64,000 nucleotides of DNA from Gammaproteobacteria bacterium (GTDB lineage Bacteria > Pseudomonadota > Gammaproteobacteria > UBA12402), in NCBI GenBank assembly GCA_018812595.1, contig JAHJDF010000012.1:276-64275 (forward strand), given 5' to 3'. Of the stretch, positions 37,606 through 60,300 are shown one piece after another. The position numbers and the translations under genes are program-made. The notes below the pieces were generated by a model. That model was not told the origin of the DNA and ran no database searches. It saw only the letters and a list, made by a program, of their open reading frames with translations. Position 1 is the first letter of the stretch. Every line of letters begins with the position of its first letter.

Positions 37606-37662
37606 CGTTTTACCTTGAAAATTGTGTGGCAATCGCACAATTTTCAATGTAAATTACCTCTT

Positions 37663-38805
37663 ATGAAACGAACATACTTTCTTCAACAACTTCATTCGGC
37701 CTTCAATACGCACCCAATTGTTGCAATTTTAGGGCCTCGGCAATGCGGAAAAACCACCCTTTCCCGTCAATATGCGGCCTCTCAACCCGACGTCACATTT
37801 TTTGACCTGGAAGACAGTCGCGATTTGGCAAAATTACAAGACCCAGCGCTTGCATTGGCCTCTTTGAAGGGCCTAGTCATTCTCGACGAAATTCAACGGG
37901 TACCAGAATTATTTCCCATACTTCGAGTACTCATCGATCAAGCAAATCGTCAAACGCACTATTTAATCTTAGGAAGTGCCTCTCGCGATTTAATTCGACA
38001 GTCTTCAGAAACATTAGCCGGACGCATTGAATATCTAGAACTCACCCCATTCTCTTTTCAGGAAGTCGGTGAATTTGAAAAATTATGGTTACGAGGAGGT
38101 TTTCCCCTGTCATTTCTAGCAAACGATGAAAATACAAGTAATCGTTGGCGCAAAGCCTACATTCGCACCTTTCTTGAAAAAGACATCCCTAACTTGGGTT
38201 TTAGAATTGCACCAGAAACCCTACGAAGATTCTGGATGATGCTTGCTCATTACCATGCAAATATTTTTAACGCCTCTGAATTAGGACGTTCATTTGGTGT
38301 TGCACATACAACAATTGAACATTATCTCGATATCTTGACAGGAACTTTTATGGTCCGTCGATTGCGACCATGGATTGAAAACATCAAAAAACGACAAGTG
38401 AAAGCTCCAAAAATTTACTTTCGTGATAGCGGTATCCTACATACCCTTCTAGGGATCGAAACGATGAATCATCTGCTTTCCAATCCAAAACTCGGAGCGT
38501 CTTGGGAAGGATTTGCAATGGAAGAAATTATTCGAGCACATCATGCAGAACAAGAAGCCTGTTATTTTTGGTCAACTCATACCGGCGCTGAATTAGATCT
38601 ATTGCTTTTTCAAAACCAACAACGTTTAGGTTTCGAATTCAAATATTCCTCTTCACCCAAGTTAACAAAATCCATGCATATAGCTTTAGAAACTCTCAAG
38701 CTAGATCAATTAACTGTGATCACACCAGGAAACGATCAATATCCGTTAACCGATCACATTGAAGTCTTTGGTATAGAAAAATATATAGATCAACAATCAT
38801 TTTAA
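37663..38805 (+). CDS. COG1373 AAA+ ATPase (AAA_14 plus DUF4143)
   Basis: Walker A ILGPRQCGKTT, Walker B VILDEIQ, and a C-terminal DUF4143-like region. Inserted within a duplicated lpxL 3' end. Start set at the internal Met; the track ORF begins at 37615. Confidence 0.8.
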   Translation: MKRTYFLQQLHSAFNTHPIVAILGPRQCGKTTLSRQYAASQPDVTFFDLEDSRDLAKLQDPALALASLKGLVILDEIQRVPELFPILRVLIDQANRQTHYLILGSASRDLIRQSSETLAGRIEYLELTPFSFQEVGEFEKLWLRGGFPLSFLANDENTSNRWRKAYIRTFLEKDIPNLGFRIAPETLRRFWMMLAHYHANIFNASELGRSFGVAHTTIEHYLDILTGTFMVRRLRPWIENIKKRQVKAPKIYFRDSGILHTLLGIETMNHLLSNPKLGASWEGFAMEEIIRAHHAEQEACYFWSTHTGAELDLLLFQNQQRLGFEFKYSSSPKLTKSMHIALETLKLDQLTVITPGNDQYPLTDHIEVFGIEKYIDQQSF

Positions 38806-38847
38806 ATTGATACGCGAAAACAGCTTCTCCTCAGCAATTCTCGAACT

Positions 38848-39000
38848 GATTTTCCAACGGATGACGTTGAACAAGACACCGCACGCATCAACAAAATTAC
38901 AGAGAAAGCGGTGCGCCAATACCCCGATCAATACATGTGGCAATACATGCGATTTAAAACCCGCCCCGAAGGCGAAGAACGGTTTTATCGGAAATGACAA
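38848..39000 (+). repeat. Second, about 93%-identical copy of the lpxL 3' end (last about 50 codons plus stop)
   Basis: Direct duplication of 37455..37607 flanking the COG1373 ATPase gene. Reads in frame to a TGA. Confidence 0.85.
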
Positions 39001-44476: not shown

Positions 44477-45379
44477 CTATTTTTTATGAGCAAGAAACTC
44501 TCGATTGATATCTCGGATGGCGCGATAGCGGGATTGGGATTCGGGGGAGGGGGAAAGATGGAGGAAAGATCGAAGTTGGTGGAAAAACAAACGCATTGAG
44601 GTTAATCGAAGTTCTCGTGTTAACAACGTCACCACATCGGCAGGGCTGAAATGTTTTTCGTAGAAAAGGATCAAGGCTTTTTGTTTTTTGCAGGCTAATT
44701 CATACGATGTTGTTTTTTGTTCACTGCCTGCATCGTAATGTTCTACGGTGACTTCGGGACAATAACCAATTTCATAGCCTAATTTTCTGACTCGTAAACA
44801 AAGGTCTTCGTCTTCGCCGTATAAAAAGAAATCTGGATCAAATCCTTTGATCTCATCAAATAGATGTTTTGGGATTGCCATAGATGCGCCAATCACCCAC
44901 GCGATCGAACCTTTTAATGATTTGAAAGAATCTTTGAATATTTTTTCACCGGTGTGCCGCGTCTTAGGGTACGTCTCAGCTTCACCACGAGAGCTCACAA
45001 TGCGAGTTCCTACCACACCAAACTGTGGGTGCTGTTCCAAAAAATCAACTAAGCGTTTTAATGCCTCTTTTTCGGATAAATAGGCATCGGGATTTAATAG
45101 ATAAAGAAATTTTCCACTCGCGTGTTGTGCCGCTAAGTTATTGGCTCTTCCGAACCCTAGGTTTTCGGGGCTTTTGATTAATTTTATTTTTGGCTGGATT
45201 CCCGCCTTCGCGGGAATGACGTTCGCATATTCCTCTAGGATTTGGACGCTTTGATCGTGGCTGGCGTTGTCTACAATGATCAATTCAAAATCAACGCGTT
45301 CTTGTTCCAAGACAGATTCAATACAGCGACGAATCAAATCGCCTGTATTGTAATTAACGATTATGACACTCACGTCCAT
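44477..45379 (-). CDS. Family 2 glycosyltransferase carrying an in-frame REP insertion
   Basis: MDVSVIIVNYNTGDL N-terminus and a GT-A fold. Codons NVIPAKAGIQPKIK are encoded by the REP ggctggattcccgccttcgcgggaatgacgtt at about 45180..45230, just upstream of the conserved SPENLGFGRANN block. Confidence 0.75.
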   Translation of the reverse strand: MDVSVIIVNYNTGDLIRRCIESVLEQERVDFELIIVDNASHDQSVQILEEYANVIPAKAGIQPKIKLIKSPENLGFGRANNLAAQHASGKFLYLLNPDAYLSEKEALKRLVDFLEQHPQFGVVGTRIVSSRGEAETYPKTRHTGEKIFKDSFKSLKGSIAWVIGASMAIPKHLFDEIKGFDPDFFLYGEDEDLCLRVRKLGYEIGYCPEVTVEHYDAGSEQKTTSYELACKKQKALILFYEKHFSPADVVTLLTRELRLTSMRLFFHQLRSFLHLSPSPESQSRYRAIRDINREFLAHKK

Positions 45380-45435: not shown

Positions 45436-45498
45436 CTACATAGATTCTGCCATACATCCAACTTAAAGAACGTTTCAAGGTTCTTCTCTTAAATCTCT

Positions 45499-46962
45499 CT
45501 ATAAAGAATAAAAAATCTCCTGAAGCGTTGAATCTTTCAGATTCATTAAAAATCGTCTTTTGTCTTTTTCTAATGCTCGTAATAAGCGTTTTTGTCCTGT
45601 AAGACGTTTTATACTGTCTAGATCAATCATAAAAACTTTCTGATCGTGCACAATGAAATTGCTGGCTTTCATGTCGCCGTGAGTCAGTTTCAATCGTAAG
45701 AAACAATCAAAAATTATTTTTATCTGCTGCAATATCCTTTGTTTTTGCTCAAGAGAAATCTTGTGTTCAAGATATCGATTCAATAAATCCCCTGATACAA
45801 ATTCAGACACGTAATAAGCCTTTCCTCTGAAAATTCCATACCGCTTTTCGATCAATGCAACCGGCTTTGGCAACGGCATGCGATACAACTCCAATCGATG
45901 TGCATTTTTCCAATATTGCGCAGCGCGAGTGCTTCGAAAGAAACGGTTCAATCGATGCAGCCAATTTTTGATGTTGTACCGCTTTACAACAAACAAACGC
46001 CCATCGATCGAAACTTTCGAAACCGTACACGTATTGCCGTCTTTCAAGCATTCTCCTTTATCCATCCAAAAATCAGGCGCATTCAGAAAGGAAATAAACT
46101 CAGGAGATACATATTCTTTGCGACACACATAATGAAAATGCTTGTTTTTCCCAGCACGAAATAACGTCGCATTTCTAAAGATCTTTTTTAACTTTTCTTT
46201 TTCTCTCTTTAAACGAGAAAGATATTGCCAATGTTCTAACTGACGCACCCAATCTGCTTTTTTATCGTACGTGTTTAAATCTTTTCTTCCCTGCAAATAA
46301 ACATCCAATAGCTTTTCCAGCTTGTCATCAGCGGTGGGCGACAATTGCGCCAACAATTCCCCTAAATTCTTAAGGCAATCGGCCATAGGAAGAGGCATGC
46401 CTTTCTGCCTAACCTCTTGTGAATCTAGAACAAACAAACCCTCTTGCGTGGCAAGGTAATTGTGAGGATGCAGATCGCTGTGCAACAACCCCTTGGCATG
46501 TTGCAACGCCAATTGCTGAATAAAAGGCTCCGCATTGGTCGCAAAAAATAAATCATCGGCATCGATTGTTTGTTTAAGGTATTTAAACAAGATGACAAAG
46601 AGATGATTAGAACCCTCCGAATATAAAATCTCAGGGGTTCTTATGTGATGTTTTTCTAAAAGCCTTGTACCCCGAAGAGTCTCCTGGAAATATCGTTCCG
46701 CTCGACGCGTTCCAAAATAAATCTTTCCAACGACGGGCATCCCTTTCCATCTTCCTTTAACAACCATTCTTTTGTTCGGAAGCATTCGCAAAATTTCTTC
46801 ACAAAGCAGCGTTTGATCGCCCAAGGCAACAGAAAAAGGAGCTCGTATATCGGGTCTCAATTGTTTCGCATCGGAAATCAAAATCATTGAATCGCTCGTT
46901 TCTTGAAAAGTTGTTCGGCTCTCTTTTTGACGGTCAACCAAAAAGATCGTTCTAAAGGCCAT
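45499..46962 (-). CDS. LPS-core kinase-like protein with two tandem Kdo/WaaP-type kinase-like domains
   Basis: N-terminal half has LHSDLHPHNYL; C-terminal half has THGDMKASNFIVHDQKVFMIDLD (HxDxxxxN Brenner-type catalytic motifs). The true start may be the internal Met at about 46887 (ATGA overlap with the upstream gene). Confidence 0.6.
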   Translation of the reverse strand: MAFRTIFLVDRQKESRTTFQETSDSMILISDAKQLRPDIRAPFSVALGDQTLLCEEILRMLPNKRMVVKGRWKGMPVVGKIYFGTRRAERYFQETLRGTRLLEKHHIRTPEILYSEGSNHLFVILFKYLKQTIDADDLFFATNAEPFIQQLALQHAKGLLHSDLHPHNYLATQEGLFVLDSQEVRQKGMPLPMADCLKNLGELLAQLSPTADDKLEKLLDVYLQGRKDLNTYDKKADWVRQLEHWQYLSRLKREKEKLKKIFRNATLFRAGKNKHFHYVCRKEYVSPEFISFLNAPDFWMDKGECLKDGNTCTVSKVSIDGRLFVVKRYNIKNWLHRLNRFFRSTRAAQYWKNAHRLELYRMPLPKPVALIEKRYGIFRGKAYYVSEFVSGDLLNRYLEHKISLEQKQRILQQIKIIFDCFLRLKLTHGDMKASNFIVHDQKVFMIDLDSIKRLTGQKRLLRALEKDKRRFLMNLKDSTLQEIFYSL

Positions 46963-47609
46963 ATCGTGCGTAAAGAAGAGTGTCTATACGCTTTCATAAA
47001 ACGAAAAAGATCATTTCGTGTCAGCGTGATGTTCATGCTTGAAAAATAAAGCCCTGCAAGATCTTTAATGAGCCATCGCTCCGGCACTTTCTTTCTGATC
47101 TGTGCACGATGCAAATCGATCACATAAATAGGCATCAATGGGTCAAATTCTTTTCGTTCGTCCATCAGGAAATGCAAAAGGTAACAATCGCGGTGATTCA
47201 ACCCGCTTGCATGCATACGAGAAACAATTTCAGCAATTCTTTTGATCAACCGATATTTTGTATTGAAGGGCACGCCCGTTTGTTTCCACTGCAACAACAG
47301 GTCATTCACACTGCACGTATGCGTTAATGCTTCTAAAATAATAAACGACTGGATTTTGGCTGGATTCCAGCCTCGATAACCCACACCGAACACTTTCGGA
47401 ACGGACACTCCTGCACGCTCCAAATGACAGATGGCTCGATATTCATCTTTCGTACTTAAAATCGGTTTTTGTAATTTGAACAACGATTTAAAAATTTCTT
47501 TCCAACCCACACCCCAATGGCGTTTGATGAAATACTGCTTATTTTTAAGGGTGATACGTAAAGTCTCTCTCGACTCCACTTTTCTATAAGTAGTGCCTTT
47601 GACATGCAT
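46884..47609 (-). CDS. WaaP/InaA-family LPS core heptose kinase-like protein
   Basis: LNHRDCYLLHFLMDE ... YVIDLHRAQI matches the WaaP catalytic region (HRDCYICHFLL). Start set at the internal Met because a palindrome occupies 47623..47649; the track ORF begins at 47699. Confidence 0.7.
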   Translation of the reverse strand: MHVKGTTYRKVESRETLRITLKNKQYFIKRHWGVGWKEIFKSLFKLQKPILSTKDEYRAICHLERAGVSVPKVFGVGYRGWNPAKIQSFIILEALTHTCSVNDLLLQWKQTGVPFNTKYRLIKRIAEIVSRMHASGLNHRDCYLLHFLMDERKEFDPLMPIYVIDLHRAQIRKKVPERWLIKDLAGLYFSSMNITLTRNDLFRFMKAYRHSSLRTIWPLERSFWLTVKKRAEQLFKKRAIQ

Positions 47610-47622
47610 TAATACATCAAAA

Positions 47623-47649
47623 GGAGACGCAATAAATCGCGTCTCTACG
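47623..47649. terminator. Palindrome ggagacgcaataaatcgcgtctctacg immediately downstream of ftsZ
   Basis: Same family as 44388, 45409 and 12663; follows the ftsZ stop. Confidence 0.4.
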
Positions 47650-47705
47650 TTTTCGAGGGAAGATAAATGAAAGAGAGGAGATAAATTGATATACGACATG
47701 AGAAA

Positions 47706-48866
47706 TTAATTAGAAGCCTCTTCTTCCTCTTCTTTTCTACGAAGGAAAGCAGGAATGTCTAAATACTCGATATCTTGTTTTAAAGCGTCGGCCGTTCTTG
47801 GGGAAACCGTGCCTTGTTTACGAATCACGGTAGGACGTTCCAGTTGTTGGTAATCCCATGACCCGTCTGATTTCGTGTTTTCAACAATGGTGTTAGCAGG
47901 TGCGATCTGATCGTTGCCTAAACCTGTGACGACAATAGTGACACGCATTTCATCTACTAATTCAGGATCAATTACGGTACCTACTACAACGGTAGCTGAT
48001 TCGGAGCTAAAGCTTTTCACCACATCACCCACTTCTTCAAATTCGCCAATCGACATATCTAGGCCGGCTGTGATGTTAACTAACACACCTTTAGCGCCAG
48101 CAAAATTTACATCTTCTAGAAGGGGGCTTGAGATAGCAGCTTCTGCAGCTTCTCTCGCTCTGTTTTCACCACGAGCAACGCCGGTACCCATCATAGCCAT
48201 ACCCATTTCTTGCATCACTGTACGAACATCGGCGAAGTCGACGTTGATTAATCCAGGACGAGTAATTAATTCTGAAATTCCCTGGACAGCGCCTAAAAGC
48301 ACATTGTTCACGGCTCTAAAAGCATCTAATAAGGTAATGCCTTTCCCAAGCACACTCAGCAATTTATTGTTTGGAATGGTGATCAAAGAATCCACATATT
48401 GAGCTAATTCACGAATACCTTCTTCCGCCACATCGAATCGACGACGTCCTTCAAAGGCAAAGGGTTTAGTTACTACAGCAACAGTTAAAACACCCATGTC
48501 TTTTGCGATTTGCGCAACAATTGGTGCAGCTCCAGTGCCTGTACCGCCGCCCATCCCGGCAGTAATAAAGACCATGTCCGAACCTTCTAAAATTTCTTTA
48601 ATACGCTCACGATCTTCTTCCGCAGCTTGACGACCAATCAAAGGATCCGCGCCTGCGCCTAATCCTTTCGTCACCTCTACACCGAGTTGAAGCAAAGTAC
48701 GAGCATGTGCATTTTTCAACGCTTGGGCATCTGTATTCGCGCAAATAAAATCAACGCCTTCGATTGATTCCGTCAACATATGCTCAACGGCATTCCCTCC
48801 ACCGCCACCTACACCAAACACTTTAATGACAGCACTTTGTGGAAAATTATCGACTAATTCAAACAT
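47706..48866 (-). CDS. ftsZ: Cell division GTPase FtsZ
   Basis: MFELVDN...[24 protein letters not shown] tubulin signature and a conserved C-terminal peptide (DIPAFLRRK). Start set at the Met giving canonical length; the track ORF extends to 48908. Confidence 0.95.
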
Positions 48867-49185
48867 CGCAGCATGCTCCATAGCTAACTTAAATCCCCAA
48901 AAGAACAATAGGGGCTTATCTTTTGGGCCAGCAATCTATCATTTCTAAATACCAAACTTAATAACAATTTAAAGTATTTAACCGTAGGTAAAAACCGGCT
49001 TAACACATATAAGAATTGTAAAGATAAAACCATTGAATGCCCCGAAGGGACAGGAGTTGCTTGATTTTCCGTTTCAATATTTCTGTCAACGAATTACTTA
49101 ACACACACAAGGATGACAAATATGTAGTATTTTCTTAAAAACAATATGCCAAAAATTACTGAATAATAAAAAAGGAGGCCGTGTT

Positions 49186-50166
49186 GTGTTTAAAAAATTA
49201 ACTAATTTGCCAAAACGGTTCGATCAAATAATGGAGAACTTAAGCAATAGTATAGGTAAACGTGGTAGCAAAATTTCTGTCTTAAGAAAATTGGATGAAT
49301 TCTTCGGAGATGAATTGTTAGAAAATCATCATGGTAATTATCCGAATTTAAAGTCTCCTTTAAAAACAGGAATACTAGCTACACTTGTTACTTTGTTTGG
49401 CTTTTCAGGAATCGGCATTCCTCTCGCTTCAGTTATTGGAACAATAGTAGGCACACTGTTAACTCCAACAACACCATTCCTTGGTGGAGCAATTGGTTTT
49501 GTGATAGGTGCAACAGCAGGCACTGTAACTGCTGGATTCATGACGCTTCTAATAACCGGCTTTCCTGCCTTAAGTGCTGTTGGTTTTCTAAGCCTGTTTG
49601 CTTCTACAGGTGTCCTTGGAGCAGCTGTATCCTTTCCTATTCGTTTTGCATCCGCACTAATAGAATCTGCTGTGGTCATGACACGCGGCGTTTATAAAGC
49701 GGTAGAAAATATAGTTGATGCAATATCAATCAAGAATAAATGGATAAAAGGGATCGCAACGGCGCTACTAACCCCAATAGCATTAACAACTTTTGCTCCT
49801 GTTGCAGCCGTATCCACAGTTGCAAAAGCATTAGGTCTAACGGGGCGTAGTTTATATTTCATGTTTAAAAAACTGACGAAACCCGACTCCAGTTCTGAAG
49901 AACCTGGCCTTAAAATTGGTTTAAATCCTTTACCAACGTGGACGTGGTCTGAAATAACAAAAAGAACATTATTAACTGAAGAGCGATTACCCATAGAGGT
50001 TTTATTCTCTACTACTAAGAAAGAAGTGAGCCAATTTCCAAGAGGAGCTGTATTGAATTTATTCCCTAAAAAATACAAACCGTTCATACCGCTTACTATC
50101 GAGGAAATAAAAACAGACGAAGATATACCATCAGAGGAAGGGCCATATCATGTACTTGAAAATTGA
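49186..50166 (+). CDS. Hypothetical glycine-zipper-rich membrane protein (326 aa) between ftsZ and ftsA
   Basis: GTG start 8 nt after GGAGG. Central hydrophobic stretch of about 160 aa rich in GxxxG/AxxxG repeats, with hydrophilic N- and C-terminal regions. No homology recognised. Confidence 0.55.
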   Translation: MFKKLTNLPKRFDQIMENLSNSIGKRGSKISVLRKLDEFFGDELLENHHGNYPNLKSPLKTGILATLVTLFGFSGIGIPLASVIGTIVGTLLTPTTPFLGGAIGFVIGATAGTVTAGFMTLLITGFPALSAVGFLSLFASTGVLGAAVSFPIRFASALIESAVVMTRGVYKAVENIVDAISIKNKWIKGIATALLTPIALTTFAPVAAVSTVAKALGLTGRSLYFMFKKLTKPDSSSEEPGLKIGLNPLPTWTWSEITKRTLLTEERLPIEVLFSTTKKEVSQFPRGAVLNLFPKKYKPFIPLTIEEIKTDEDIPSEEGPYHVLEN

Positions 50167-50651
50167 TGGCCTTTTTGGACGCTGTGGACATGGATCTACC
50201 CGATCTACAGTGTCAGCTGTCAGATTGCATTTCCCTGATTGCGACAACTCAATTCACCATTCATCCGTATTATGAGCAAGATATAGAAAGCTTTTCCCAA
50301 GAAATTGAAGCGCTGACCGACAAGATGAAAAAAAACCATGTGTTGCTGTTGACGAAATATTGCGTCGAAAAAAAATTGATGACGTTAAATTTCTGGAGAG
50401 ATTTAGAAGGACGCGAAGTCGATTGGGTGTTGAGTTGCGGAAATAAAATTTTGCCGATTGAAGTCAAATGGACGGATAAACCTGCAATGAAAGATTTACG
50501 TCATTTGAATACTTTCCTAAACGATTATCGGCTCAAGAAAAGTTTTGTTGTTTGCAGAATAAAAAAAGCAACAATTTCGTTATTTTTGCACAGCAACTTG
50601 AAATTACCTGAATTAGGATGGTCTGTAATATATGGCCCAATTTCTGTGTAA
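50163..50651 (+). pseudogene. Remnant (C-terminal DUF4143-like portion) of a COG1373 ATPase gene
   Basis: LNFWRDLEGREVDWVL...ILPIEVKWTDKP resembles the C-terminal domain of the intact COG1373 ATPase at 37663..38805 (FWSTHTGAELDLLL...LGFEFKYSSSPK). The P-loop domain is missing. Confidence 0.45.
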
Positions 50652-50696
50652 TTAACCAATAGAGAGAGAAGATTCCGTGCTTATGGCCGTCTGCAT

Positions 50697-51938
50697 CTAA
50701 AAGAACTTGAACCATTTCACCATTCTTGACCAGATACCCTCAGCATCGTTTTCGTTGAGAATGAGCTCTGGATTGTCTGAGTATTCTTGTTGATACCCAT
50801 ACAACAACAACCCAATGCAAGTGGAGAATTTTGGATTACGAACTACATCGATAAGTCCGCTGACATTTTCAGGCATTCCTAATCGAACCGGCGCCTGAAA
50901 AATACGTTCTGCCAAATCTATGGCACCTGGAATCATAGAAGCACCGCCCGTTAATACGATGCCCGCGGCAATTAAATCTTCAAAACCGCTGCGTCTAATT
51001 TCTGCGCGCACCAAAGAGAACAGCTCTTCATACCGAGGCTCACAAACCTCGCTTAACACTTGCTTCGGTAATTTTCTACCCGGGCGATTACCCACAGAGG
51101 ACACTTCAAAAGTTTCGTTAGACAAAGCTAATTCAACTAAAGCACACCCGTGTTTCAACTTAATTTCTTCTGCATTTTGTGTCGGCGTACGCAAAGCAAT
51201 AGCAATGTCGTTCGTCACCTGATCGCCTGCAATTGGAATCACCGCTGTATGACGAATTGCACCGTCTGTAAAAATTGCAATGTCAGTCGTTCCGCCGCCA
51301 ATATCGATCAAACAAACGCCGAGTTCTTTTTCGTCTTCCGTTAATACAGAATAACTAGAAGCCAACTGCTCAAGAATCATGTCGCTCACTTGCAGCCCAC
51401 AGCGCTTTACACATTTCACAATGTTCTGAGCTGCGCTCACAGCACCCGTCACGATGTGTACCTTTGCTTCTAAACGCACACCCGACATACCAACCGGCTC
51501 ATGGATACAATCTTGATTATCGATCACAAATTCCTGCGGCAGGATATGAAGAATTTTTTGATCGGCTGGAATAGCCACAGCTTTTGCTGCATCAATGACA
51601 CGATCCACATCTGTTTGTGTCACTTCTTGATCACGAATCGCCACGATGCCATGCGAATTCAAACTGCGAATATGGCTTCCTGCGATCCCTGCATAAGCGG
51701 CATGGATGTCACACCCGGCCATTAACTCCGCCTCTTCAATCGCATGCTTAATCGAGTTCACCGTAGACTCGATATTAACCACCACACCTCTCTTCAATCC
51801 TTTAGACGCACTCGACCCAACACCCACAACATTCACAACCCCTTGAGAGGACACTTCTCCAACAACGGCAACTACTTTTGATGTACCAATATCAATTCCT
51901 ACTATCAATTTTTTTTCGGGTTGTTTGCGTTTTGACAT
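50697..51938 (-). CDS. ftsA: Cell division protein FtsA
   Basis: Actin-fold motifs (VGIDIGTSKV, DIGGGTTD) and a C-terminal amphipathic helix. 413-416 aa. Start set at the second Met; the track ORF extends to 51947. Confidence 0.95.
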   Translation of the reverse strand: MSKRKQPEKKLIVGIDIGTSKVVAVVGEVSSQGVVNVVGVGSSASKGLKRGVVVNIESTVNSIKHAIEEAELMAGCDIHAAYAGIAGSHIRSLNSHGIVAIRDQEVTQTDVDRVIDAAKAVAIPADQKILHILPQEFVIDNQDCIHEPVGMSGVRLEAKVHIVTGAVSAAQNIVKCVKRCGLQVSDMILEQLASSYSVLTEDEKELGVCLIDIGGGTTDIAIFTDGAIRHTAVIPIAGDQVTNDIAIALRTPTQNAEEIKLKHGCALVELALSNETFEVSSVGNRPGRKLPKQVLSEVCEPRYEELFSLVRAEIRRSGFEDLIAAGIVLTGGASMIPGAIDLAERIFQAPVRLGMPENVSGLIDVVRNPKFSTCIGLLLYGYQQEYSDNPELILNENDAEGIWSRMVKWFKFF

Positions 51939-51983: not shown

Positions 51984-52676
51984 TTATTTCCATCGGACGG
52001 CCATACCGTGCGCGTATCGTAGATCAACTTCCTGAAGTTGGGTAGCGCGCGCGGCAAATACTTTGGGATACAATTTTACGAAGCGTTTTAACTGTTCGAG
52101 CGCTTGAACATTGCCTAAATGAACGGTCACACCGTTACTCAATTGCACCGACCAAGAGTTGGCTGCATCGATCGCAAATTGTGAAATAGATAAATGAAGA
52201 GGCGCCAAAACAACCGACATTTGTTGATAGTCGCTCAACATCTCAACGCTTGAATCATCAGGCCCTATCAATTGAGGTAAAGAAGTAAATTCATCCATTG
52301 GAATTTTGGCGACAAAGGTTTCGCCATAAGCATTCAGAAAATCATTTCGATTCCAAACGACGATCGCTTTTTCTGGATCTATTTGAATCACCAACTCATG
52401 AGGCCAAACTTTTTTGACATCCACCGAAGCAACCCACGGCAGATTCTGTAAAGAAGCTTGCACTTTAGAAAGACGTACATTAAAAAAATTCGTCTTTGGC
52501 TGAAGTTCAGTCGTTAACAAACGTTGGATATTAACTGTTTCGTTTGAACCAAAATTCCCTTCAACGCGCACCGAGGTGATTGGTAAGAAACGATTGGAAA
52601 GAGCTCTAAAGCCTATAAAACAGGCAATAATGGCTACGGCAATAAGCACTCCTAAAGAAATTTTTTTCCAAGACAT
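51984..52676 (-). CDS. ftsQ: Cell division protein FtsQ
   Basis: N-terminal TM helix then POTRA/FtsQ domain; placed between murB and ftsA. Confidence 0.8.
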   Translation of the reverse strand: MSWKKISLGVLIAVAIIACFIGFRALSNRFLPITSVRVEGNFGSNETVNIQRLLTTELQPKTNFFNVRLSKVQASLQNLPWVASVDVKKVWPHELVIQIDPEKAIVVWNRNDFLNAYGETFVAKIPMDEFTSLPQLIGPDDSSVEMLSDYQQMSVVLAPLHLSISQFAIDAANSWSVQLSNGVTVHLGNVQALEQLKRFVKLYPKVFAARATQLQEVDLRYAHGMAVRWK

Positions 52677-52684
52677 TGAAATCC

Positions 52685-53599
52685 CTAACCTATTATTTTG
52701 ATTTCTGTCACCAAATGAACACCAAAGTTTTCATCAACTTTCTGCTGAATCAAACGAATCAATTGCTCAATGTCTGTAGCCGTTGCTCGCCCTTGATTCA
52801 CAATAAAATTCGCATGTTTTTCTGAGACACATGCGTCCCCAACACAAAATCCCTTTAACCCACATACTTCAATCAATCGACCAGCAAAATCATCTTTGGG
52901 GTTTTGAAACACAGAACCTGCATTGGGCAAAGTCAAAGGCTGCGTATCCCTCCGTCTCTTTAAAATTTCTTGTATTTTTCTTTTAGACGCCAATTCATCT
53001 CCAGGCTCACCAATAAAATAAGCAGCAGTAAACCAACGCTGTTCTTGCAAAGCCCCCTTGAGTTGCACCTGTCGATATCCAATGTCGAATTCATGCGGGT
53101 AACACAAACAGACTTCCCCTGTTCTATCAATCATTTCAGCAACCGCTACATGCTCCCAGGTACACGATCCATGAGCCCCGGCATTCATCACCAATGCACC
53201 GCCAATCGTGCCTGGAATACCGGCTAAAAATTCAATGCCTCCAAAACCTTGTTGAACCATCCAATGCGCAAAGTGTGGGCTCAAACAACCGCATTCCACG
53301 CGCACAAGAGAAACCGTCGTTAGGTCTTCTTCTATTAATGCAGAACTAAGAAATTTTGGCATCAGCTGCAATGTCTGTAGATTTTTTGTGAGAATCACAG
53401 TGCCTTTAAACCCACTATCACAAACCAAAACATTACTTCCCTGCCCTAACCACATCAGTGGTTCTTCTTTTGGCAGTTGGATTAAAAATTCTTTTAGATC
53501 TTCGAAGTCCGTAGGAATAAAAACGGTTTTGGCCATCCCGCCGACTTTCCACGTCGTGAAATCTGCTAACGACACTTGATGTAACAGCCGACCTTTCAT
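52685..53599 (-). CDS. murB: UDP-N-acetylenolpyruvoylglucosamine reductase
   Basis: FAD-binding domain (GQGSNVLV), about 300 aa, within the dcw cluster. Confidence 0.85.
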   Translation of the reverse strand: MKGRLLHQVSLADFTTWKVGGMAKTVFIPTDFEDLKEFLIQLPKEEPLMWLGQGSNVLVCDSGFKGTVILTKNLQTLQLMPKFLSSALIEEDLTTVSLVRVECGCLSPHFAHWMVQQGFGGIEFLAGIPGTIGGALVMNAGAHGSCTWEHVAVAEMIDRTGEVCLCYPHEFDIGYRQVQLKGALQEQRWFTAAYFIGEPGDELASKRKIQEILKRRRDTQPLTLPNAGSVFQNPKDDFAGRLIEVCGLKGFCVGDACVSEKHANFIVNQGRATATDIEQLIRLIQQKVDENFGVHLVTEIKIIG

Positions 53600-53657
53600 G
53601 TTTGATTCACCTTTTCATCATCCCCGCCATCGAAGTCATCCCTACGTAAACAAAAAA

Positions 53658-55034
53658 TCACCCAACAATTTCTCTCATGATTCGACTCACGCTACCAGCG
53701 CCTTGAGAGAAAACAACGTCCCCTTCTTTTACGACACGATTCAATACCTTCGAAAGCTCCTTTGCATCGGACACAAAGATAGGGTCTATCAACCCTTTTT
53801 CGCGAATCTTTTGACACAACGATTGTGCGTCCGCACCTTCAATTAAAGTCTCTCCTGCAGCATATTCTTTCAGCACAATTAACACATCGACCTTGGACAA
53901 CACTTCCACGAACTCCTGAAACAAATCCCGCGTACGAGTATAACGATGTGGCTGAAACACCATCACAAAACGTCGATTGGGCCAACAGTCACGAACTGCT
54001 TGTGCAGTCGCAGCAAGCTCAGTGGGATGGTGACCGTAATCATCAAAAACACTGGCAGTACCTTGCGCAAAAATATGTTCTCCAAGAGGCTGAAAACGTC
54101 GACCCACCCCCGCAAATTTCTTTAGTGCGGAAACAATTACATCATCAGAAACTCCTATTTCCCGAGCAACAGCAATGGTCGAAAGAGCGTTCAATGCGTT
54201 GTGTTTTCCCGGTAAATTCAAAGAAACTTTCATCGGATCATAATGATCGTAAGCAGGAACTAAGAAATGGGTCTTGATCCCTTGCTGCTGATAATCAACT
54301 ACTCTCACCAAAGCATCTTCTGAAAATCCATACGTAATGATGGGCCGCTCGACTTGCTTACATAATTGCTTCACGGTCTCGTTATCAACACAGCAAACAG
54401 CTAATCCATAAAAAGGCAAACGATGTAAGAACTCGATAAACGTTTGCACCAATTCGTTAAAATCCCCGTGATACGTCTCCATGTGATCCGCATCGATGTT
54501 CGTCACGATCGACATAATCGGCATTAACCGCAAAAACGAAGCATCGCTTTCGTCTGCTTCAGCCACTAAATAACGCCCTGATCCTAAGCCCGCATTAGAC
54601 CCCGCGCTGTTCAGCACACCGCCAATTACAAACGTTGGATCCAATCCGTCTTCCGCCAAAATACTGGCCATCAAGCTGGTTGTGGTTGTTTTTCCATGCG
54701 TACCCGAAACGGCAATCCCTGTACGAAATCGCATCAATTCCGCCAACATAGCCGCCCGCGGCACTACAGGAATATTGAGCTTCTTTGCAGCAACCACTTC
54801 TATGTTGTCAGGTCGCACAGCAGAAGAAATCACCAAAACATCTGCACCAACAACATGACTTTCATCGTGTCCATAAAAAACCTTTGCGCCCAATTCACTT
54901 AGATTTCTCGTAAGTGCATTTTCCGACAAATCAGATCCGGAAATGGCATACCCTTCTCTCAATAATACCTCAGCAATACCTGCCATCCCGACACCACCGA
55001 TACCAACAAAATGGATCTGATGAATTCGCCTCAT
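53658..55034 (-). CDS. murC: UDP-N-acetylmuramate--L-alanine ligase
   Basis: MRRIHQIHFVGIGGVGMAGIAEVL N-terminus and the Mur ligase P-loop GTHGKTTTT. Start set at the internal Met; the track ORF extends to 55067. Confidence 0.92.
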   Translation of the reverse strand: MRRIHQIHFVGIGGVGMAGIAEVLLREGYAISGSDLSENALTRNLSELGAKVFYGHDESHVVGADVLVISSAVRPDNIEVVAAKKLNIPVVPRAAMLAELMRFRTGIAVSGTHGKTTTTSLMASILAEDGLDPTFVIGGVLNSAGSNAGLGSGRYLVAEADESDASFLRLMPIMSIVTNIDADHMETYHGDFNELVQTFIEFLHRLPFYGLAVCCVDNETVKQLCKQVERPIITYGFSEDALVRVVDYQQQGIKTHFLVPAYDHYDPMKVSLNLPGKHNALNALSTIAVAREIGVSDDVIVSALKKFAGVGRRFQPLGEHIFAQGTASVFDDYGHHPTELAATAQAVRDCWPNRRFVMVFQPHRYTRTRDLFQEFVEVLSKVDVLIVLKEYAAGETLIEGADAQSLCQKIREKGLIDPIFVSDAKELSKVLNRVVKEGDVVFSQGAGSVSRIMREIVG

Positions 55035-55080
55035 ACCAATTCCATGACTCAAACCATATTTATTCACCGATCAACTCCCC

Positions 55081-55175
55081 TACGTATTAGTCGTCATTCC
55101 CGCCTAAGCTTAGAATCCAGAAAATATATTCATCTGGATCCTTAGCTTTCGCGGGGATGACAAGACAGTTGCTAC
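55081..55175. repeat. Palindromic REP/MITE element (about 70 bp, 28-bp stem) overlapping the 3' end of murG
   Basis: gtcattcccgcctaagcttagaatccag-aaaatatattcat-ctggatccttagctttcgcggggatgac followed by aagacagttgctacaac. The final about 15 codons of the murG ORF (SSPRKLRIQMNIFSGF) are encoded by it. Confidence 0.85.
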
Positions 55176-56288
55176 AACTTGTTCTGTCACATGAACTTGT
55201 CTCAAACCATAAGATCGTTCTGCCATTTCAAGCAATGCCTTGCGATCCAAATAACGCTCTCGCAAAAGTTCAAGCAATCGTGTTTTGGTAAATTGATCTT
55301 GCGAAATCATTTCACCTGCTTTTTTTCGCACTAAAAATAAAGCGTTTTTTGTTTGGTGATCATCCACAGCTTGAGGAAACGGCACAAAAAAAACAGCCAT
55401 CCCCACAGCACATAATTCCGCCACGGTTAAAGCCCCTGAACGACAAAGGACGACATCCGCCCAATCATAAGCAGCAGCCATATCGTAAATAAAAGCATCA
55501 ACGCGAGCAGTCAGGTTGAGCGCTGCATATTTTTGTTTTGTCTCTTCCAAATGCTTCTCACCGGTCTGATGCCACACCTCTAAATGTTCTTGATCCGACA
55601 ATAAAGCAAGCGCCTCTGGCACCACTCGATTAAAAACCGAAGCCCCTTGGCTTCCACCAAAAACTAACAATCGAATAGAACCTTCATGCCGAGCATAACG
55701 TTTCTTGGGAGCATCTAATTGAAGTAAATCATGACGAACCGGGTTGCCGACATAATGAAATTTTTTCCAAGCCGATGTGTTTTGATGCGAACAACAGCAA
55801 CCGTTCGCGCATTTGTTTGCTTGCTTTAGATACTCCACTGGAAAACCGGTTAAGACACAATCAGCAAAATTCGACAACACTTGATTGGTCATCCCCAACA
55901 CAGAATTTTGTTCATGCAACACCAGTCGCTTACGCAATAACCATGCAGCAATCCCTCCAGGACCGGCTGCATAACCACCCATTCCTAAAACAACATCCGG
56001 CTTAAATCTTCTTATGACACGCATGGCCTGAAAAATCGCTTTCATCAATTGCCACGGCAAAGAACACCATCTTTTAAATCCTGTTCCCCGCACACCCCTA
56101 ATCGATAAACGGTGTAATGGAATATCTTCTTTTGCCAACAACTTATTTTCTAGACCATGAAAAGTTCCCAGCCATTCCACCGAATGTCCTTTCTTAAGCA
56201 ACAAACGAGCAACCGCCAATCCTGGAAAAATATGCCCCCCAGTCCCCCCAGCAATGATCAATACTCTTCGACGAGTCGATGCAACCAT
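55110..56288 (-). CDS. murG: Undecaprenyl-PP-MurNAc-pentapeptide-UDPGlcNAc GlcNAc transferase
   Basis: VLIIAGGTGGHIFPGLAVA N-terminus and a GT28 fold. About 35 aa longer than typical because the reading frame continues into the REP element. Confidence 0.9.
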   Translation of the reverse strand: MVASTRRRVLIIAGGTGGHIFPGLAVARLLLKKGHSVEWLGTFHGLENKLLAKEDIPLHRLSIRGVRGTGFKRWCSLPWQLMKAIFQAMRVIRRFKPDVVLGMGGYAAGPGGIAAWLLRKRLVLHEQNSVLGMTNQVLSNFADCVLTGFPVEYLKQANKCANGCCCSHQNTSAWKKFHYVGNPVRHDLLQLDAPKKRYARHEGSIRLLVFGGSQGASVFNRVVPEALALLSDQEHLEVWHQTGEKHLEETKQKYAALNLTARVDAFIYDMAAAYDWADVVLCRSGALTVAELCAVGMAVFFVPFPQAVDDHQTKNALFLVRKKAGEMISQDQFTKTRLLELLRERYLDRKALLEMAERSYGLRQVHVTEQVVATVLSSPRKLRIQMNIFSGF

Positions 56289-56319
56289 GTAAGAAATCCA
56301 TAAAAAATATTTTAAACAA

Positions 56320-57477
56320 TCACCAATCTAACAAGCGGTGAACGTTTTTTTCTCGGCGATTGGTTTCGTAATCAATACGAAGCAGTAACGCGACAACAAT
56401 GGCAACAATCAAGATACTGCTGCCGCCATAACTAAATAAAGGAAGGGTTAATCCTTTCGTCGGCAATAAACCAGCATTTACACCGATATTCACAATGATT
56501 TGCATTGAGAACCACAAACCGAATCCATATGCCATATAGCCCGCCCCATGCATGTCCGCCAACTGTGCACGTCGACCAATGAAGAAAATACGCCAGATGA
56601 ACACAATATAGAGACCAATCATGGCTAAGACTCCGAGCAACCCCAGTTCTTCAGCCAACACAGCAAATAAGAAATCCGTATGCGCTTCGGGCAAATAAAA
56701 TAATTTTTGAATACTGCCGCCCAACCCCACACCAAAGAGTCCGCCGCGTCCAAATGCAATCAAAGACTGAGTCAATTGATACCCACTGGAATATTGATGC
56801 GCCCACGGATTCAAGAATGAAGTCAAACGCAACACACGATAGGGAGAAGAAATAGCCAAAATCGCCATCACTGTCAGCATCGCCAAAGAAAACATTAAAA
56901 AGATTTTGAGGCGCATTCCCGCTAAAAACATCATGCCAACAACTGTCACAACCAAAACAGCTGTTGCCCCGTAATCAGGTTCCAGAAGCAATAAAAGAGC
57001 AAGCACTCCCAAAACGATCAAAGGCCGGATTAACCCTTCAAGCGTCGAACGCACCTCCTGATGATGTCGAACGAGATAACTGGACAGATAAAGCACCATC
57101 GCCAATTTTACAAATTCGGAAACCTGCAATTGCAGAGGTCCAAAACCAATCCAACGGCTGCTGCCATTCACCTGGCGGCCCAATCCCGGAATCAAAACAG
57201 CAACCAACAACACAAGGCCAATTAACAATAAAAAAATACCGTATTGTTGCCACGTCGCGATGGAGGTACGAATAACAATGCAGGCGATTAAAAAGCCCAA
57301 CAGCAAATACATGCCTTGTCTGAGAAGAAAGTGGAAAGGCATTCCGAACGTGCGTTCAGAAATAGCCATCGAAGCAGAAGTCACCATGACCAAACCAAAA
57401 CAACTGAGCGCAATCACTGAAAACAGCAAGTAAGGGTCATAGTTTTGAAAAATTTGTTGTACTTTTTTATTGATCAT
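56320..57477 (-). CDS. ftsW: Peptidoglycan glycosyltransferase FtsW (SEDS family)
   Basis: Ten TM helices with SEDS-family blocks; dcw position between murD and murG. Confidence 0.9.
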   Translation of the reverse strand: MINKKVQQIFQNYDPYLLFSVIALSCFGLVMVTSASMAISERTFGMPFHFLLRQGMYLLLGFLIACIVIRTSIATWQQYGIFLLLIGLVLLVAVLIPGLGRQVNGSSRWIGFGPLQLQVSEFVKLAMVLYLSSYLVRHHQEVRSTLEGLIRPLIVLGVLALLLLLEPDYGATAVLVVTVVGMMFLAGMRLKIFLMFSLAMLTVMAILAISSPYRVLRLTSFLNPWAHQYSSGYQLTQSLIAFGRGGLFGVGLGGSIQKLFYLPEAHTDFLFAVLAEELGLLGVLAMIGLYIVFIWRIFFIGRRAQLADMHGAGYMAYGFGLWFSMQIIVNIGVNAGLLPTKGLTLPLFSYGGSSILIVAIVVALLLRIDYETNRREKNVHRLLDW

Positions 57478-58828
57478 TGCCTTGTGCTAATGCTTGAACT
57501 TTTTCCATAAAGACATCGCCGCGATGTTTGTAGTTATTAAACATGTCAAAACTCGCGCATGCTGGTGATAACAACACAAGATCTCCTCGCAATGCCGCCA
57601 AATCGGCTTTTTTGATTGCACCATCGATGCTGTCGCCCGCATGTTCCATGTCACAGCAACCATCCAAAACAACCGCTAATTGTTTCGCGGCTTCGCCAAT
57701 CAAGATTAATTTGCGTACGTATTTTTTTACGGACTCACGCAAAGGTGAAAAATCAGCGCCTTTGCCAATGCCTCCTGCGATTAAGACGATCTTGCCTTTT
57801 ATGCCGACACCTAACCCTTCTAACGCAGCAATGGTCGCCCCGACGTTGGTGCCTTTTGAATCGTTATACCAACTGATGCCCCCACTTTTTAAAATGAACT
57901 GACAACGATGCGGCAATCCTGAAAATGTCTTCAACGTTTCCAACATAGCTTCTAATGGAAAACCCGCACAAGAACCGATCGCTAAAGCGGCTAATGCATT
58001 TTCAATGTTATGCATGCCCTTAATTTTTACGGCTTGAGCTAAAAGCAATAATTCTTCTCCACGCGCAAGATAGAGCTCTCCATGATGAGTCCTTACTCCA
58101 AATTCATTGGCGGATGGTTCCGTCAAACCGAAGCTCACTCTCTGACAAGGAACAGTTGGTTTCGTTAATGGGTCACGTCGGTTAAAAACAGCGTGTTTTG
58201 CGCCAACGTAAATCCTGTGCTTCGCAGCCGTGTATTCCTCCATGTTGGCGTAACGATCCATATGGTCTTCTGTAACATTTAAAATAGCAGCGACTTCAGC
58301 ACGCAAGGAATGCGTCGTTTCTAATTGGAAACTCGACAACTCTAAAACATATAAATCCGCGGATTGATCGTTTAAGACATCCAAAACGGGCAACCCAATA
58401 TTGCCGGCCACTTGAACGTTAATCCCCGCTTGCCTGGCCATCTCTCCCACTAAAGCTGTGGTCGTACTTTTCGCATTGGCGCCTGTAATCCCAATGATGG
58501 GTGCTTTGATTTTTCGAATAAATAATTCAACATCTCCTGCATAAGGAATGCCTTTCGCAATCGCTTTTGCAATCTCAGGCTCTTTCAAAGACACGCCGGG
58601 ACTGATAATCAATTCCGCAGCATTTTGAATAAGCTCAGAGTCAAGCCTTCCAAAAACTGCAGGGGCCTTCGGGGCAAGTTTTTCAAGCTCCTCTTTGCCT
58701 GGAGGATTCTCTCTAGAATCCGTTACCGCAAAATTCAACCCTTCTCGAATGCAATAACGCACACAAGACATTCCCGTTAATCCAAGGCCAACAACCACAT
58801 GTAAGGGCTGTTTTTCTGTTGTTTTCAT
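57467..58828 (-). CDS. murD: UDP-N-acetylmuramoylalanine--D-glutamate ligase
   Basis: Mur ligase motifs (GITGANAKSTTT) and N-terminal MurD Rossmann region (VVGLGLTGMS). Confidence 0.92.
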   Translation of the reverse strand: MKTTEKQPLHVVVGLGLTGMSCVRYCIREGLNFAVTDSRENPPGKEELEKLAPKAPAVFGRLDSELIQNAAELIISPGVSLKEPEIAKAIAKGIPYAGDVELFIRKIKAPIIGITGANAKSTTTALVGEMARQAGINVQVAGNIGLPVLDVLNDQSADLYVLELSSFQLETTHSLRAEVAAILNVTEDHMDRYANMEEYTAAKHRIYVGAKHAVFNRRDPLTKPTVPCQRVSFGLTEPSANEFGVRTHHGELYLARGEELLLLAQAVKIKGMHNIENALAALAIGSCAGFPLEAMLETLKTFSGLPHRCQFILKSGGISWYNDSKGTNVGATIAALEGLGVGIKGKIVLIAGGIGKGADFSPLRESVKKYVRKLILIGEAAKQLAVVLDGCCDMEHAGDSIDGAIKKADLAALRGDLVLLSPACASFDMFNNYKHRGDVFMEKVQALAQGNDQ

Positions 58829-58838
58829 AAAATTTCCC

Positions 58839-59930
58839 TCATCGCAATTTCAATGTTGCTAAACCACATAAAACCAGAATAAAAGTGATGATCCAAAAAC
58901 GTACAATGACGCGCGGCTCTGGCCATCCTTTTAATTCAAAATGATGATGAATCGGCGCCATCTTAAAAATGCGTTTCCCTGTTAAACGGAAAGAAACAAC
59001 CTGCAAGATCACCGAAACTGTTTCTAGCACAAAGACTCCGCCCATCAATGCCAACACCAATTCTTGACGAACAATCACTGCAATCGTGCCAATCGCAGCG
59101 CCTAAACCTAATGCACCTACGTCACCCATGAACACTTGCGCCGGATATGTGTTGTACCAAAGAAAACCCAGTCCTGCGCCTACAATCGCTCCGCAAATAA
59201 TCACAAGTTCTCCGACGCCCGGGATATAAGGAATCATTAAATAAGTAGAGAAATGGAAATTTCCTGTGACATAAGCAAAGACGCCAAATGCTGCGATGAT
59301 CATAACGGAAGGAAGGATTGCCAAACCATCTAGTACATCCGTTAAATTGACCGCATTACTGGTTCCAACAATAACGAAGTAACTAAAGAAAAGGTAAACA
59401 GGCCCTAATTCAATAAGAACGTTTTTAAAAAATGGAACAAACAACTCTGTTTCTGCGGGCATCAAGGCGGAAAAATAAAGATAAGTTACTCCCGCTAACG
59501 CCACGATCGATTGAAACAAATATTTCTTCTTTGCGGACAATCCACGGCTGTCTTTCAACAATAATTTACGGTAATCGTCATACCAACCGATGAGCCCAAA
59601 ACCCAAGGTCTCCAGTAAAACCACCCACACATAACGGTTTGTCAAATCACCCCACAATAAAGTGGAAATAGTGATCGCGATCAAAATTAAGGTACCGCCC
59701 ATAGTTGGAGTACCCGCTTTCTTGAGATGAGACTGTGGGCCATCTGCACGCACAACCTGTCCAATCTGATGCCGTGTTAACCGTCGAATAAAGAAGGGGC
59801 CTAAAAGCAAAGCAACAAATAGAGCGGTTAGTGCACTTAAAATGGTTCGAAAGGTTAGATATTGAAAAACATTAAAGGCGTGAAAATAATTTTCTAGTAA
59901 AGAAGCCAACCACAACAGCATAAAACTCAC
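58839..59930 (-). CDS. mraY: Phospho-N-acetylmuramoyl-pentapeptide transferase
   Basis: 363 aa polytopic protein with the MraY DDxxD-like motif (GWYDDYRKL) and PIHHHFE. Confidence 0.92.
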
Positions 59931-60039: not shown

Positions 60040-60300
60040 ACCCTGCCATCATTCCCACAACCCCCCATCGTCATCCCTAGCTGCAGCTAAGGATCCAGAA
60101 TTGATATCTTTCCTGGATTCCCGCCTACGCGGGAATGACGGCTTTAAAAGCCATAACAAAGATCACTTGGAAAGTGGATTCCCGCCTACGCGGGAATGAC
60201 GGACTACGCGGGAATGACGGACTATGCGGGAATGACGGACTATGCGGGAATGACGGAAGAAACATAGGACCCAGATCTCTTACCCGTCATCCCCGCCTTA
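60040..60300. repeat. REP cluster including about four tandem copies of an 18-bp unit (cgcgggaatgacggacta)
   Basis: cgtcatccctagctgcagctaaggatccag ... ctggattcccgcctacgcgggaatgacgg (two copies) then gactacgcgggaatgacgg iterated. ORFs 59990..60199 and 60135..60323 are repeat translations. Confidence 0.85.

Follow-up and report, generated by a model that had tools for sequence, protein, structure and literature searches.

In the window analyzed here, a 64,000-nt stretch of the gammaproteobacterial contig JAHJDF010000012.1, the cell division genes ftsA and ftsZ are separated by 1,830 nt (48867-50696) that carry two open reading frames (ORFs) on the plus strand, opposite to ftsA and ftsZ. One of the frames, ORF326, encodes a predicted membrane protein; the other is the decayed remnant of a gene of a candidate defence family. 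We conclude with moderate confidence that the gap represents a layered scar left when accessory DNA inserted into an ancestral short spacer, in one Coxiellales/Legionellales-like species rich in repetitive extragenic palindromic (REP) elements. This reading is based on the composite content of the gap, on the repeat fragments at both of its ends and on the plasticity of the genome. The features of the locus are the following, ordered from ftsA to the region beyond ftsZ.

50697-51938, minus strand: ftsA, 413 aa, intact (Pfam FtsA 3.5e-52, SHS2_FTSA 1.8e-33)
50668-50691, minus strand: half palindrome, one 24-nt arm of a dispersed 122-nt palindromic repeat
50166-50651, plus strand: decayed COG1373/PADLOC PDC-S01 ATPase-nuclease gene, an open frame of 161 codons
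49186-50166, plus strand: ORF326, 326 codons with a GTG start, predicted membrane protein, an orphan gene (ORFan)
49173-49178, plus strand: Shine-Dalgarno (SD) motif AGGAGG, 7 nt ahead of the GTG of ORF326
48867-49185, no strand assigned: divergent spacer between ftsZ and ORF326, 319 nt, about 30% GC
49083-49117, plus strand: REP-like 35-nt element (CTGTCAACGAATTACTTAACACACACAAGGATGAC), 91% match to 22423-22457, also matching 23671-23701
48999-49025, plus strand: partial second copy of the 35-nt motif, 98 nt from the copy at 49083-49117
47706-48866, minus strand: ftsZ, 386 aa, intact (Pfam Tubulin 2.8e-49, FtsZ_C 5.2e-36)
47624-47645, minus strand: REP-type hairpin of 9 bp, then CUUUUGAUGU, 60 nt past the ftsZ stop

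A preliminary description of this DNA had reported a split of about 1.8 kb that contains an oppositely oriented 326-aa frame with a strong ribosome binding site. Its coordinates and content proved correct in the ORF listing, in the Pfam searches and in the raw sequence. Both division proteins are intact, as judged from the Pfam matches, from an alignment of FtsA with 11 relatives (72-79% identity) and from the conserved C-terminal peptide that FtsZ retains. The C-terminal amphipathic tail of FtsA reads ...RMVKWFKFF here versus ...RMKxWFxGNF in the relatives. The stop codon of ftsA lies at 50697-50699 and the start of ftsZ at 48866, so that the canonical ftsQAZ adjacency, a short gene-free spacer between genes on the same strand, is absent.

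The interruption was searched for in public contigs by exact-protein look-ups with ORF326, FtsA and FtsZ. One ENA assembly, three metagenome-assembled genomes (MAGs) from NCBI (GCA_018824895.1, GCA_018822115.1 and GCA_043810905.1) and six Logan run assemblies were recovered. Every recovered contig that reaches the junction has the interrupted arrangement, which adds up to at least 10 independent datasets, and no uninterrupted variant was found among the contigs that carry an identical FtsA or FtsZ. Eight contigs were aligned to the window, and the number of mismatches within the gap was zero. Because the same junctions occur in independent assemblies and projects, an assembly artefact, which the preliminary description had named as a possible refutation, is excluded. 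The interruption is genuine and fixed in the sampled population. Contigs of at least 10 public datasets that are unrelated to one another (L001-L008, L095-L106) agreed with the window at 99.98-100% identity along as much as 17 kb, which points to a remarkably clonal and widely sampled organism.

For the comparison with relatives a set of 82 loci was used, 79 from GTDB species genomes and 3 from looked-up contigs that were among the carriers of the closest FtsA proteins in a set of 5.8 billion proteins. The GTDB loci were taken from among the matches listed in an FtsZ-based genome scan (at least 600 pattern matches), and the statements on all 82 relatives are limited to these matches for the GTDB part. 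In 82 of 82 relatives the spacer between ftsA and ftsZ has a length of 15-334 nt (median 86) and contains no gene, whereas the window has 1,830 nt with two opposite-strand ORFs at this position. The closest relatives have an FtsA identity of 79-80%, the nearest FtsA in the 5.8-billion-protein set being 80% identical, and a scan of metagenomes of the Joint Genome Institute (JGI) with FtsQ did not reveal closer ones. In the three contigs with the closest FtsA, the called distances between the two genes are 72 nt (L089), 149 nt (L090) and 266 nt (L091), again with no gene inside. The comparison thus bears out the lineage specificity of the insertion: as far as the sequences of these relatives tell, the interruption arose in the lineage of the window, and it is rare among the gamma- and betaproteobacteria sampled.

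The spacers of two of these close relatives (L090 8252-8400 and L091 8249-8514) hold palindromic elements of the type GTGTCTGATATGACCTAACC...GGTTAGGTCATGTCTGACAC, in one copy in L090 and in two nested copies in L091. They are unrelated to the elements in the window. The presence of these palindromes shows that the ftsA-ftsZ spacer tolerates small insertions across the clade, in which small repeats have entered it repeatedly.

Repeat fragments of two families were found at the two ends of the gap, and the mobile-element remnants that the preliminary description had considered are thus present, in the form of the half palindrome next to ftsA and of the REP-like element next to ftsZ. For their interpretation, three features elsewhere in the window served as comparators.

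17495-17616, no strand assigned: full palindrome, fold -70 kcal/mol, z -12.4
22982-23434, minus strand: Y1 transposase resembling REP-associated tyrosine transposases (RAYT), Pfam Y1_Tnp 2e-20, NCBIfam IS200 1.6e-15
37615-38805, plus strand: intact PDC-S01/COG1373 paralog, PADLOC PDC-S01 E 8e-87

The half palindrome, GACGGCCATAAGCACGGAATCTTC when read from 50691 down to 50668, begins only 5 nt past the ftsA stop. It matches 23 of 24 nt at 17592-17615, within the full palindrome, and no such match is expected in shuffled sequences. A second arm was found neither in the gap nor near ftsZ. The full palindrome sits upstream of lpxC (16145-17143) and secA (12858-15566). The same palindrome family was found in two contigs (L093, L094) of another organism that is also rich in REPs, and because of this recurrence in a different organism it is regarded as a dispersed repeat resembling miniature inverted-repeat transposable elements (MITEs).

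At the other end of the gap, the 35-nt element corresponds to the outer ends of the repeat structure around the RAYT gene, and in sequence it agrees with these RAYT-associated repeats. Its 15-nt core motif has 4 copies in the window, while 0.31 are expected. It does not form a stable hairpin (49075-49130: -3.9 kcal/mol, z +0.52). Scans of the window with Rfam and for tRNAs gave no matches, and the stability of a hairpin in the ftsZ leader was not above that of shuffled sequences.

The frame next to the half palindrome descends from the COG1373/PDC-S01 family. PDC-S01 is a very common single-gene candidate defence family that has been transferred repeatedly and whose role awaits experimental validation (PMC12988326); its DUF4143 domain was placed in the PD-(D/E)XK superfamily by sequence analysis only (PMC3424549). 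Three results show the descent of the remnant. The PADLOC profile PDC-S01 matches with an E value of 2.6e-8, restricted to the C-terminal 60-75 positions. Pfam DUF4143 matches with 30.8 bits at a cut-off of 28.1, only at profile positions 124-159 of 160, which correspond to residues 67-103 of the 162-aa reading that starts at 50163. The third result is the identity to the closest full-length relative, L092, which was found on a Logan contig reached via the 68%-identical fragment P0003 and was used as the reference. Two blocks align to it. The first, at 50271-50381, corresponds to L092 317-427, just after the Walker A motif in the AAA_14 region, and only 25-58 residues of this post-Walker-A segment align. 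The second, at 50373-50570, corresponds to L092 1072-1269, the end of DUF4143, with 68% identity over 66 aa.

Compared with L092, the remnant has lost about 35 codons at its start, Walker A (the P-loop) among them, and an internal stretch of about 0.64 kb whose removal preserves the reading frame. Because Walker A and about 215 internal residues are missing, it cannot be a working ATPase. It contains neither a complete AAA_14 domain with the Walker A motif (GPRQxGKTT) nor a complete DUF4143 (PD-(D/E)XK) domain, and in a Pfam search of 49100-50700 AAA_14 had no match in any of the three plus-strand frames with stops masked. Of the PD-(D/E)XK fold it still has the D...EVK core. The preliminary description had called this frame a C-terminal remnant of a COG1373 ATPase. 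The family assignment holds, but the frame is not simply a C-terminus; it is a doubly deleted gene in which the AAA_14 piece is fused in frame to the DUF4143 end. Its GC content at third codon positions (GC3) is 0.42, which is normal for the window. When the whole insert was compared with the loci of all relatives by tblastx and blastn, L092 alone was matched, via the ATPase; ARAGORN did not confirm a tRNA-like translation that precedes the ATPase in L092.

The intact paralog in the window provides a parallel. On either side of it lies one copy of a 154-nt direct repeat (37453-37606 and 38845-38998, 94% identity), which duplicates the 3' end of lpxL, i.e., its last approximately 46 codons (lpxL 36679-37605; LpxL TIGR02207 2e-97). 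Judged from the sequence, this layout is the signature of an insertion that carried a replacement 3' end for its target gene, and it suggests that PDC-S01-family genes may enter this genome as insertions.

The larger frame of the gap, ORF326, has no recognizable relatives. It retrieved itself alone both in a word-indexed search of 5.8e9 clustered proteins and in an exhaustive phmmer search over 1.84e9 representative proteins, and no family of Pfam, NCBIfam or PADLOC matched above threshold. Hydropathy analysis divides the protein into a hydrophilic N-terminus of about 60 aa, a hydrophobic block of about 150 aa and a hydrophilic acidic C-terminus of about 100 aa that ends ...EEIKTDEDIPSEEGPYHVLEN. 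The hydrophobic block is rich in Gly, Ala and Thr and has runs of the (G/A)xxx(G/A) motif at residues 77-89 and 100-116. The designation as a glycine-zipper membrane protein in the preliminary description is therefore apt for these motif runs, but not in the sense of a family, as ORF326 does not belong to a curated glycine-zipper family (Pfam types Gly-zipper and Rick_17kDa_Anti). A single-sequence AlphaFold (AF2) model had a mean predicted local distance difference test (pLDDT) score of 45 and was unusable.

Several results nevertheless argue that ORF326 is more than a fortuitous frame. The probability of a chance open frame of 326 codons in DNA with 38.5% GC is about 3e-10, calculated from base composition. 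The codon score is +0.093 in frame and at most -0.01 in the other five frames, although it lies about 2.2 standard deviations (sd) under the gene mean (0.227 +/- 0.06 for 40 genes of the window). The GC3 of 0.26 is an outlier by about 3.3 sd from the gene mean of 0.404 +/- 0.044. From these values ORF326 is read as a real gene that would be either foreign or young. The long intact frame, the canonical SD motif and the positive coding score make it most likely that it is an expressed, lineage-specific membrane protein, as predicted.

Two further observations concern the origin and type of ORF326. The hexapeptide MFKKLT occurs twice, at residues 1-6 and 226-231, and the copies are encoded by a 19-nt repeat with 84% identity (49187-49205 and 49862-49880), which hints at an internal duplication or a possible fusion of two former ORFs. 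A likeness to Dot/Icm (type IVB) effectors, which carry a C-terminal secretion signal, is a lead only; dot/icm genes were not seen in the window, and a search for a PmrA-type site (TTAATATT-N3-TTAATATT) gave 0 matches.

The genome around the gap is rich in repeats and shows further breaks of conserved gene order. The RAYT gene is nested within a repeat structure (22419-23704; inverted repeats I1-I3 and I21). The gene lies between two 48-nt palindromes (22867-22914 and 23479-23526). The structure further comprises 174-nt inverted repeats with 95% identity and three tandem units of 119 nt (22506-22862), and the 35-nt motif terminates it on either side. REP 8-mer termini occur 46 times in the 64 kb, compared with 2.9 expected and with at most 4 per division and cell wall (dcw) locus in the relatives examined. 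REPs of the GTCATTCCCGCGAAAGCGGGAATCCAG type are very dense and often form tandem arrays with a period of 23-24 or 18 nt (e.g., 7898-7963, 24383-24499 and 60101-60257).

The dcw cluster (51984-59930) begins at mraY, and mraZ through murF are not found upstream, where REP arrays and unrelated genes are present instead. The gene ddl is likewise not in the cluster, murB and ftsQ being 8 nt apart, and the lpxC-secA region (12858-17616) lies 30 kb from ftsZ on the same strand. The closest relative, L089, also has no ddl in the cluster and no lpxC after ftsZ, while L090 and L091 retain the order murB-ddl-ftsQ-ftsA-ftsZ-lpxC-dciA-secA, with lpxC-secA coming after ftsZ. The density of REPs and these other breaks in the dcw cluster make the split of ftsA and ftsZ less surprising.

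Taken together, these results suggest the following series of events. A dispersed palindromic repeat would first have been present in the ftsA-ftsZ spacer, comparable to the small palindromes in L090 and L091. A COG1373/PDC-S01 gene, a member of a widely transferred candidate phage-defence family, may then have arrived beside or inside the palindrome. This gene would have decayed by loss of the Walker A end and of the internal 0.64 kb, and the low-GC3 ORF326 would have become contiguous with the shortened 5' side of the remnant. In addition, the REP-like element related to the RAYT flanks would have come to lie upstream of ORF326. As a result, ftsZ may now be mainly a single-gene unit, with its start in the 319-nt AT-rich spacer and its end at the REP hairpin at 47624-47645.

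Several results weigh against this reading. Neither a transposase nor terminal inverted repeats nor a target-site duplication bounds the insert, and with no transposase domain in the gap the insert does not qualify as an insertion sequence or transposon. The direct repeats at the insertion boundaries that the preliminary description proposed as a signature did not materialize; short direct and inverted matches at the boundaries were at chance level only. The DNA of the insert had no match in plasmid or phage collections. The sequence variation in the gap is zero, so that selection on ORF326 or on the remnant is not measurable. The species of the window was absent among the matches listed in the FtsZ-based genome scan, and no relative above approximately 80% FtsA identity was found in the data searched, so that the order and timing of the events cannot be reconstructed. 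Lastly, the spacer contains no convincing sigma-70 promoter, promoter-like matches being fewer than in shuffled sequences, and no intrinsic terminator was found after ftsA by a terminator scan and by folding.

The last two points bear on the question of how ftsZ is transcribed. In model organisms, the dose of FtsZ is partly set by promoters upstream of and within ftsA, and the dependence of ftsZ on upstream promoters differs between species (PMC7761207). Such promoters lie in the ddlB-ftsA region of E. coli (Flardh et al. 1997, as cited in PMC7761207), while ftsZ of Burkholderia cenocepacia relies on the far-upstream promoter Pmra alone (PMC7761207). Unlike in the canonical ftsQAZ arrangement, promoters within ftsQ or ftsA can reach ftsZ in the window only by crossing the insert. 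Since the two inserted ORFs run counter to ftsA and lead away from ftsZ, they break the physical coupling of ftsZ to ftsQA.

The divergent spacer is the presumed site of promoters for both ftsZ and ORF326. On the minus strand, sigma-70-like matches were found in or near it at 49192-49163 (the best, with 9 of 12 positions), 49043-49015 and 48961-48933 (with a TG-extended -10 region); on the plus strand, a weak match is present at 49138-49167. The REP-type hairpin behind ftsZ has a fold z of -3.95, belongs to a repeat family with 5 copies (D8) and was also matched in the terminator scan. It looks like a terminator, which would make ftsZ a single-gene unit.

The best surviving alternative accepts the insertion as described and supposes that ftsZ is still expressed mainly from transcripts that begin at the ftsQA promoters or at dcw promoters farther upstream and read through antisense to both ORFs, so that a new promoter was not required. 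We regard it as possible, if unlikely. On sequence grounds read-through could occur, because the 66 nt past the ftsA stop form no terminator-like hairpin (-4.8 kcal/mol, z +1.5); moreover, the promoter matches in the spacer are weak, and the Burkholderia case provides a precedent for a distant promoter. Such a transcript, however, would have to cross 1.8 kb untranslated against two convergent ORFs, one of which has a strong ribosome binding site. Untranslated antisense RNA of this length would be a good substrate for Rho-dependent termination, and collisions between the convergent transcripts would be expected. The cluster furthermore is without the usual mraZ promoter region: as mraZ through murF are not upstream of mraY, this genome must in any case have internal promoters. 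The AT-rich composition of the 319-nt spacer is typical of a promoter region. For these reasons, a promoter of ftsZ in the divergent spacer appears somewhat favoured. The statement of the preliminary description that ftsZ must rely on a new promoter goes further than the sequence does.

A second alternative holds that ORF326 and the 161-aa remnant are not part of a decaying scar, but form a selected, translationally coupled module of a membrane protein and a mini PD-(D/E)XK protein. It might serve as a defence system or toxin, or else contribute to the envelope or to division from a bidirectional control region that is common to it and ftsZ. Neither frame is interrupted, the ATG of the remnant overlaps the stop codon of ORF326 (TGATG), and the SD motif of ORF326 is strong. 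The remnant has kept D...EVK and its internal deletion is in frame, and the arrangement is fixed in all samples examined. Nevertheless, we consider such a module quite unlikely. The remnant is devoid of Walker A and of most of both domains, and ORF326 has no homologs and a marginal codon score. The fixation says little about selection because the sampled population is nearly clonal.

There is a slim chance that ORF326, with or without the coupled mini PD-(D/E)XK remnant, is a functional lineage-specific gene instead of passive cargo. If it were, a young or foreign membrane protein sharing the control region of ftsZ could link envelope or host-interaction functions to cell division. Alternatively, a small module resembling a toxin or defence system might persist since its deletion would endanger two essential neighbours. 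In both cases ftsZ would have been rewired to a promoter made by the inserted, REP-associated DNA.

Equally improbable is an origin of the gap from a larger rearrangement, in which recombination between copies of the palindrome or of REPs relocated the block with ftsZ or reordered the 3' part of the dcw cluster. Such an event could draw on the very high density of REPs and on the direct orientation of the ftsA-side arm and of the full palindrome upstream of lpxC, which are 33 kb apart, and it would account for the location of lpxC-secA, directly after ftsZ in L090 and L091 and 30 kb off here. The strand and order of ftsZ relative to ftsA and to lpxC-secA are still ancestral, however, and what fills the gap is accessory DNA (a defence-type gene in decay plus an ORFan) and no housekeeping genes displaced from elsewhere. 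In addition, the shared block is restricted to the 24-nt arm, without any longer similarity. A chimeric join of ftsA and ftsZ contigs during assembly or binning of the metagenomic source, for which no evidence was found, can be dismissed in view of contigs that span both junctions and of identical junctions in the ENA assembly (with megahit-style k141 names), the three MAGs and the six Logan unitig assemblies.

A layered insertion scar, which remains the preferred reading, can be compared with known systems. As in the canonical ftsQAZ arrangement of E. coli and of the 82 relatives, the genes have the same order and strand (murC-murB-ftsQ-ftsA...ftsZ) and both proteins are intact; in contrast to the canonical dcw cluster, ddl, lpxC and mraZ through murF are located outside. 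With PDC-S01/COG1373 proteins the remnant shares the post-Walker-A segment and the C-terminal nuclease end, but not the complete domains that define the family. The window resembles REP/RAYT systems in having a RAYT-like gene with inverted repeats and dozens of dispersed intergenic REPs, and fragments of a REP/RAYT family and of a MITE-like family lie at the two gap ends. REPs, however, normally add tens of bases and not genes, and nothing shows that a RAYT moved the 1.8 kb. A precedent for an accessory non-division gene in a dcw cluster is dca of Neisseria gonorrhoeae (Snyder et al. 2001, as cited in PMC5727935). No homology exists between dca and ORF326. The dca gene sits upstream within the cluster and is not known to separate ftsA from ftsZ.

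In summary, the finding is real, rare and well documented, but its mechanism is of an ordinary kind, accessory DNA having inserted and decayed in a genome full of repeats. It represents no new system, and nothing in it points to a new mechanism. Nevertheless, a natural split of ftsA and ftsZ by genes on the opposite strand offers a ready test of how important the coupling of the two genes is, and it could be a case of promoter capture by an essential gene. It also shows a candidate defence gene of the PDC-S01 family landing and decaying in an essential operon, with an ORFan parked beside it. The organism is uncultured and the sampled population clonal. The practical value is confined to comparing genomes for the evolution of dcw clusters in gammaproteobacteria that are host-associated or rich in REPs.

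A number of additional observations were made in the window. The hairpin behind ftsZ falls inside the annotated N-terminus (47609-47699) of a 271-aa Kdo-kinase ORF. Translation of the first 30 annotated codons would run through the REP hairpin and its terminator-like site, and Pfam matches the protein from residue 32 onward; the true start of the kinase is probably the ATG at 47609. A REP copy at 45190-45220 lies in frame within a family-2 glycosyltransferase ORF (44477-45379, minus strand) and is translated as ...VIPAKAGIQ..., which looks like the insertion of a palindromic element that is tolerated in a coding sequence.

Directly downstream of secA, an ORF of 1,058 aa (9213-12389, minus strand) has no Pfam or NCBIfam match. 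It is flanked by 109-nt direct repeats with 100% identity (9057-9165 and 12736-12844), and the region may be another recent insertion. Beside the RAYT locus, an ORF of 284 aa (21460-22314), whose sequence includes the basic stretch KRKRKGKK and an acidic tail rich in Ser and Pro, has no family match and is another lineage-specific protein. One of the recovered genomes of the same species, GCA_018822115.1 (L003), agrees fully with the window in most of a 12-kb stretch and yet differs at 146 positions. These differences cluster in the gene for a 487-aa Kdo/WaaP-like kinase (45485-46860), which looks like strain-level recombination or diversification of a kinase of the lipopolysaccharide (LPS) core.

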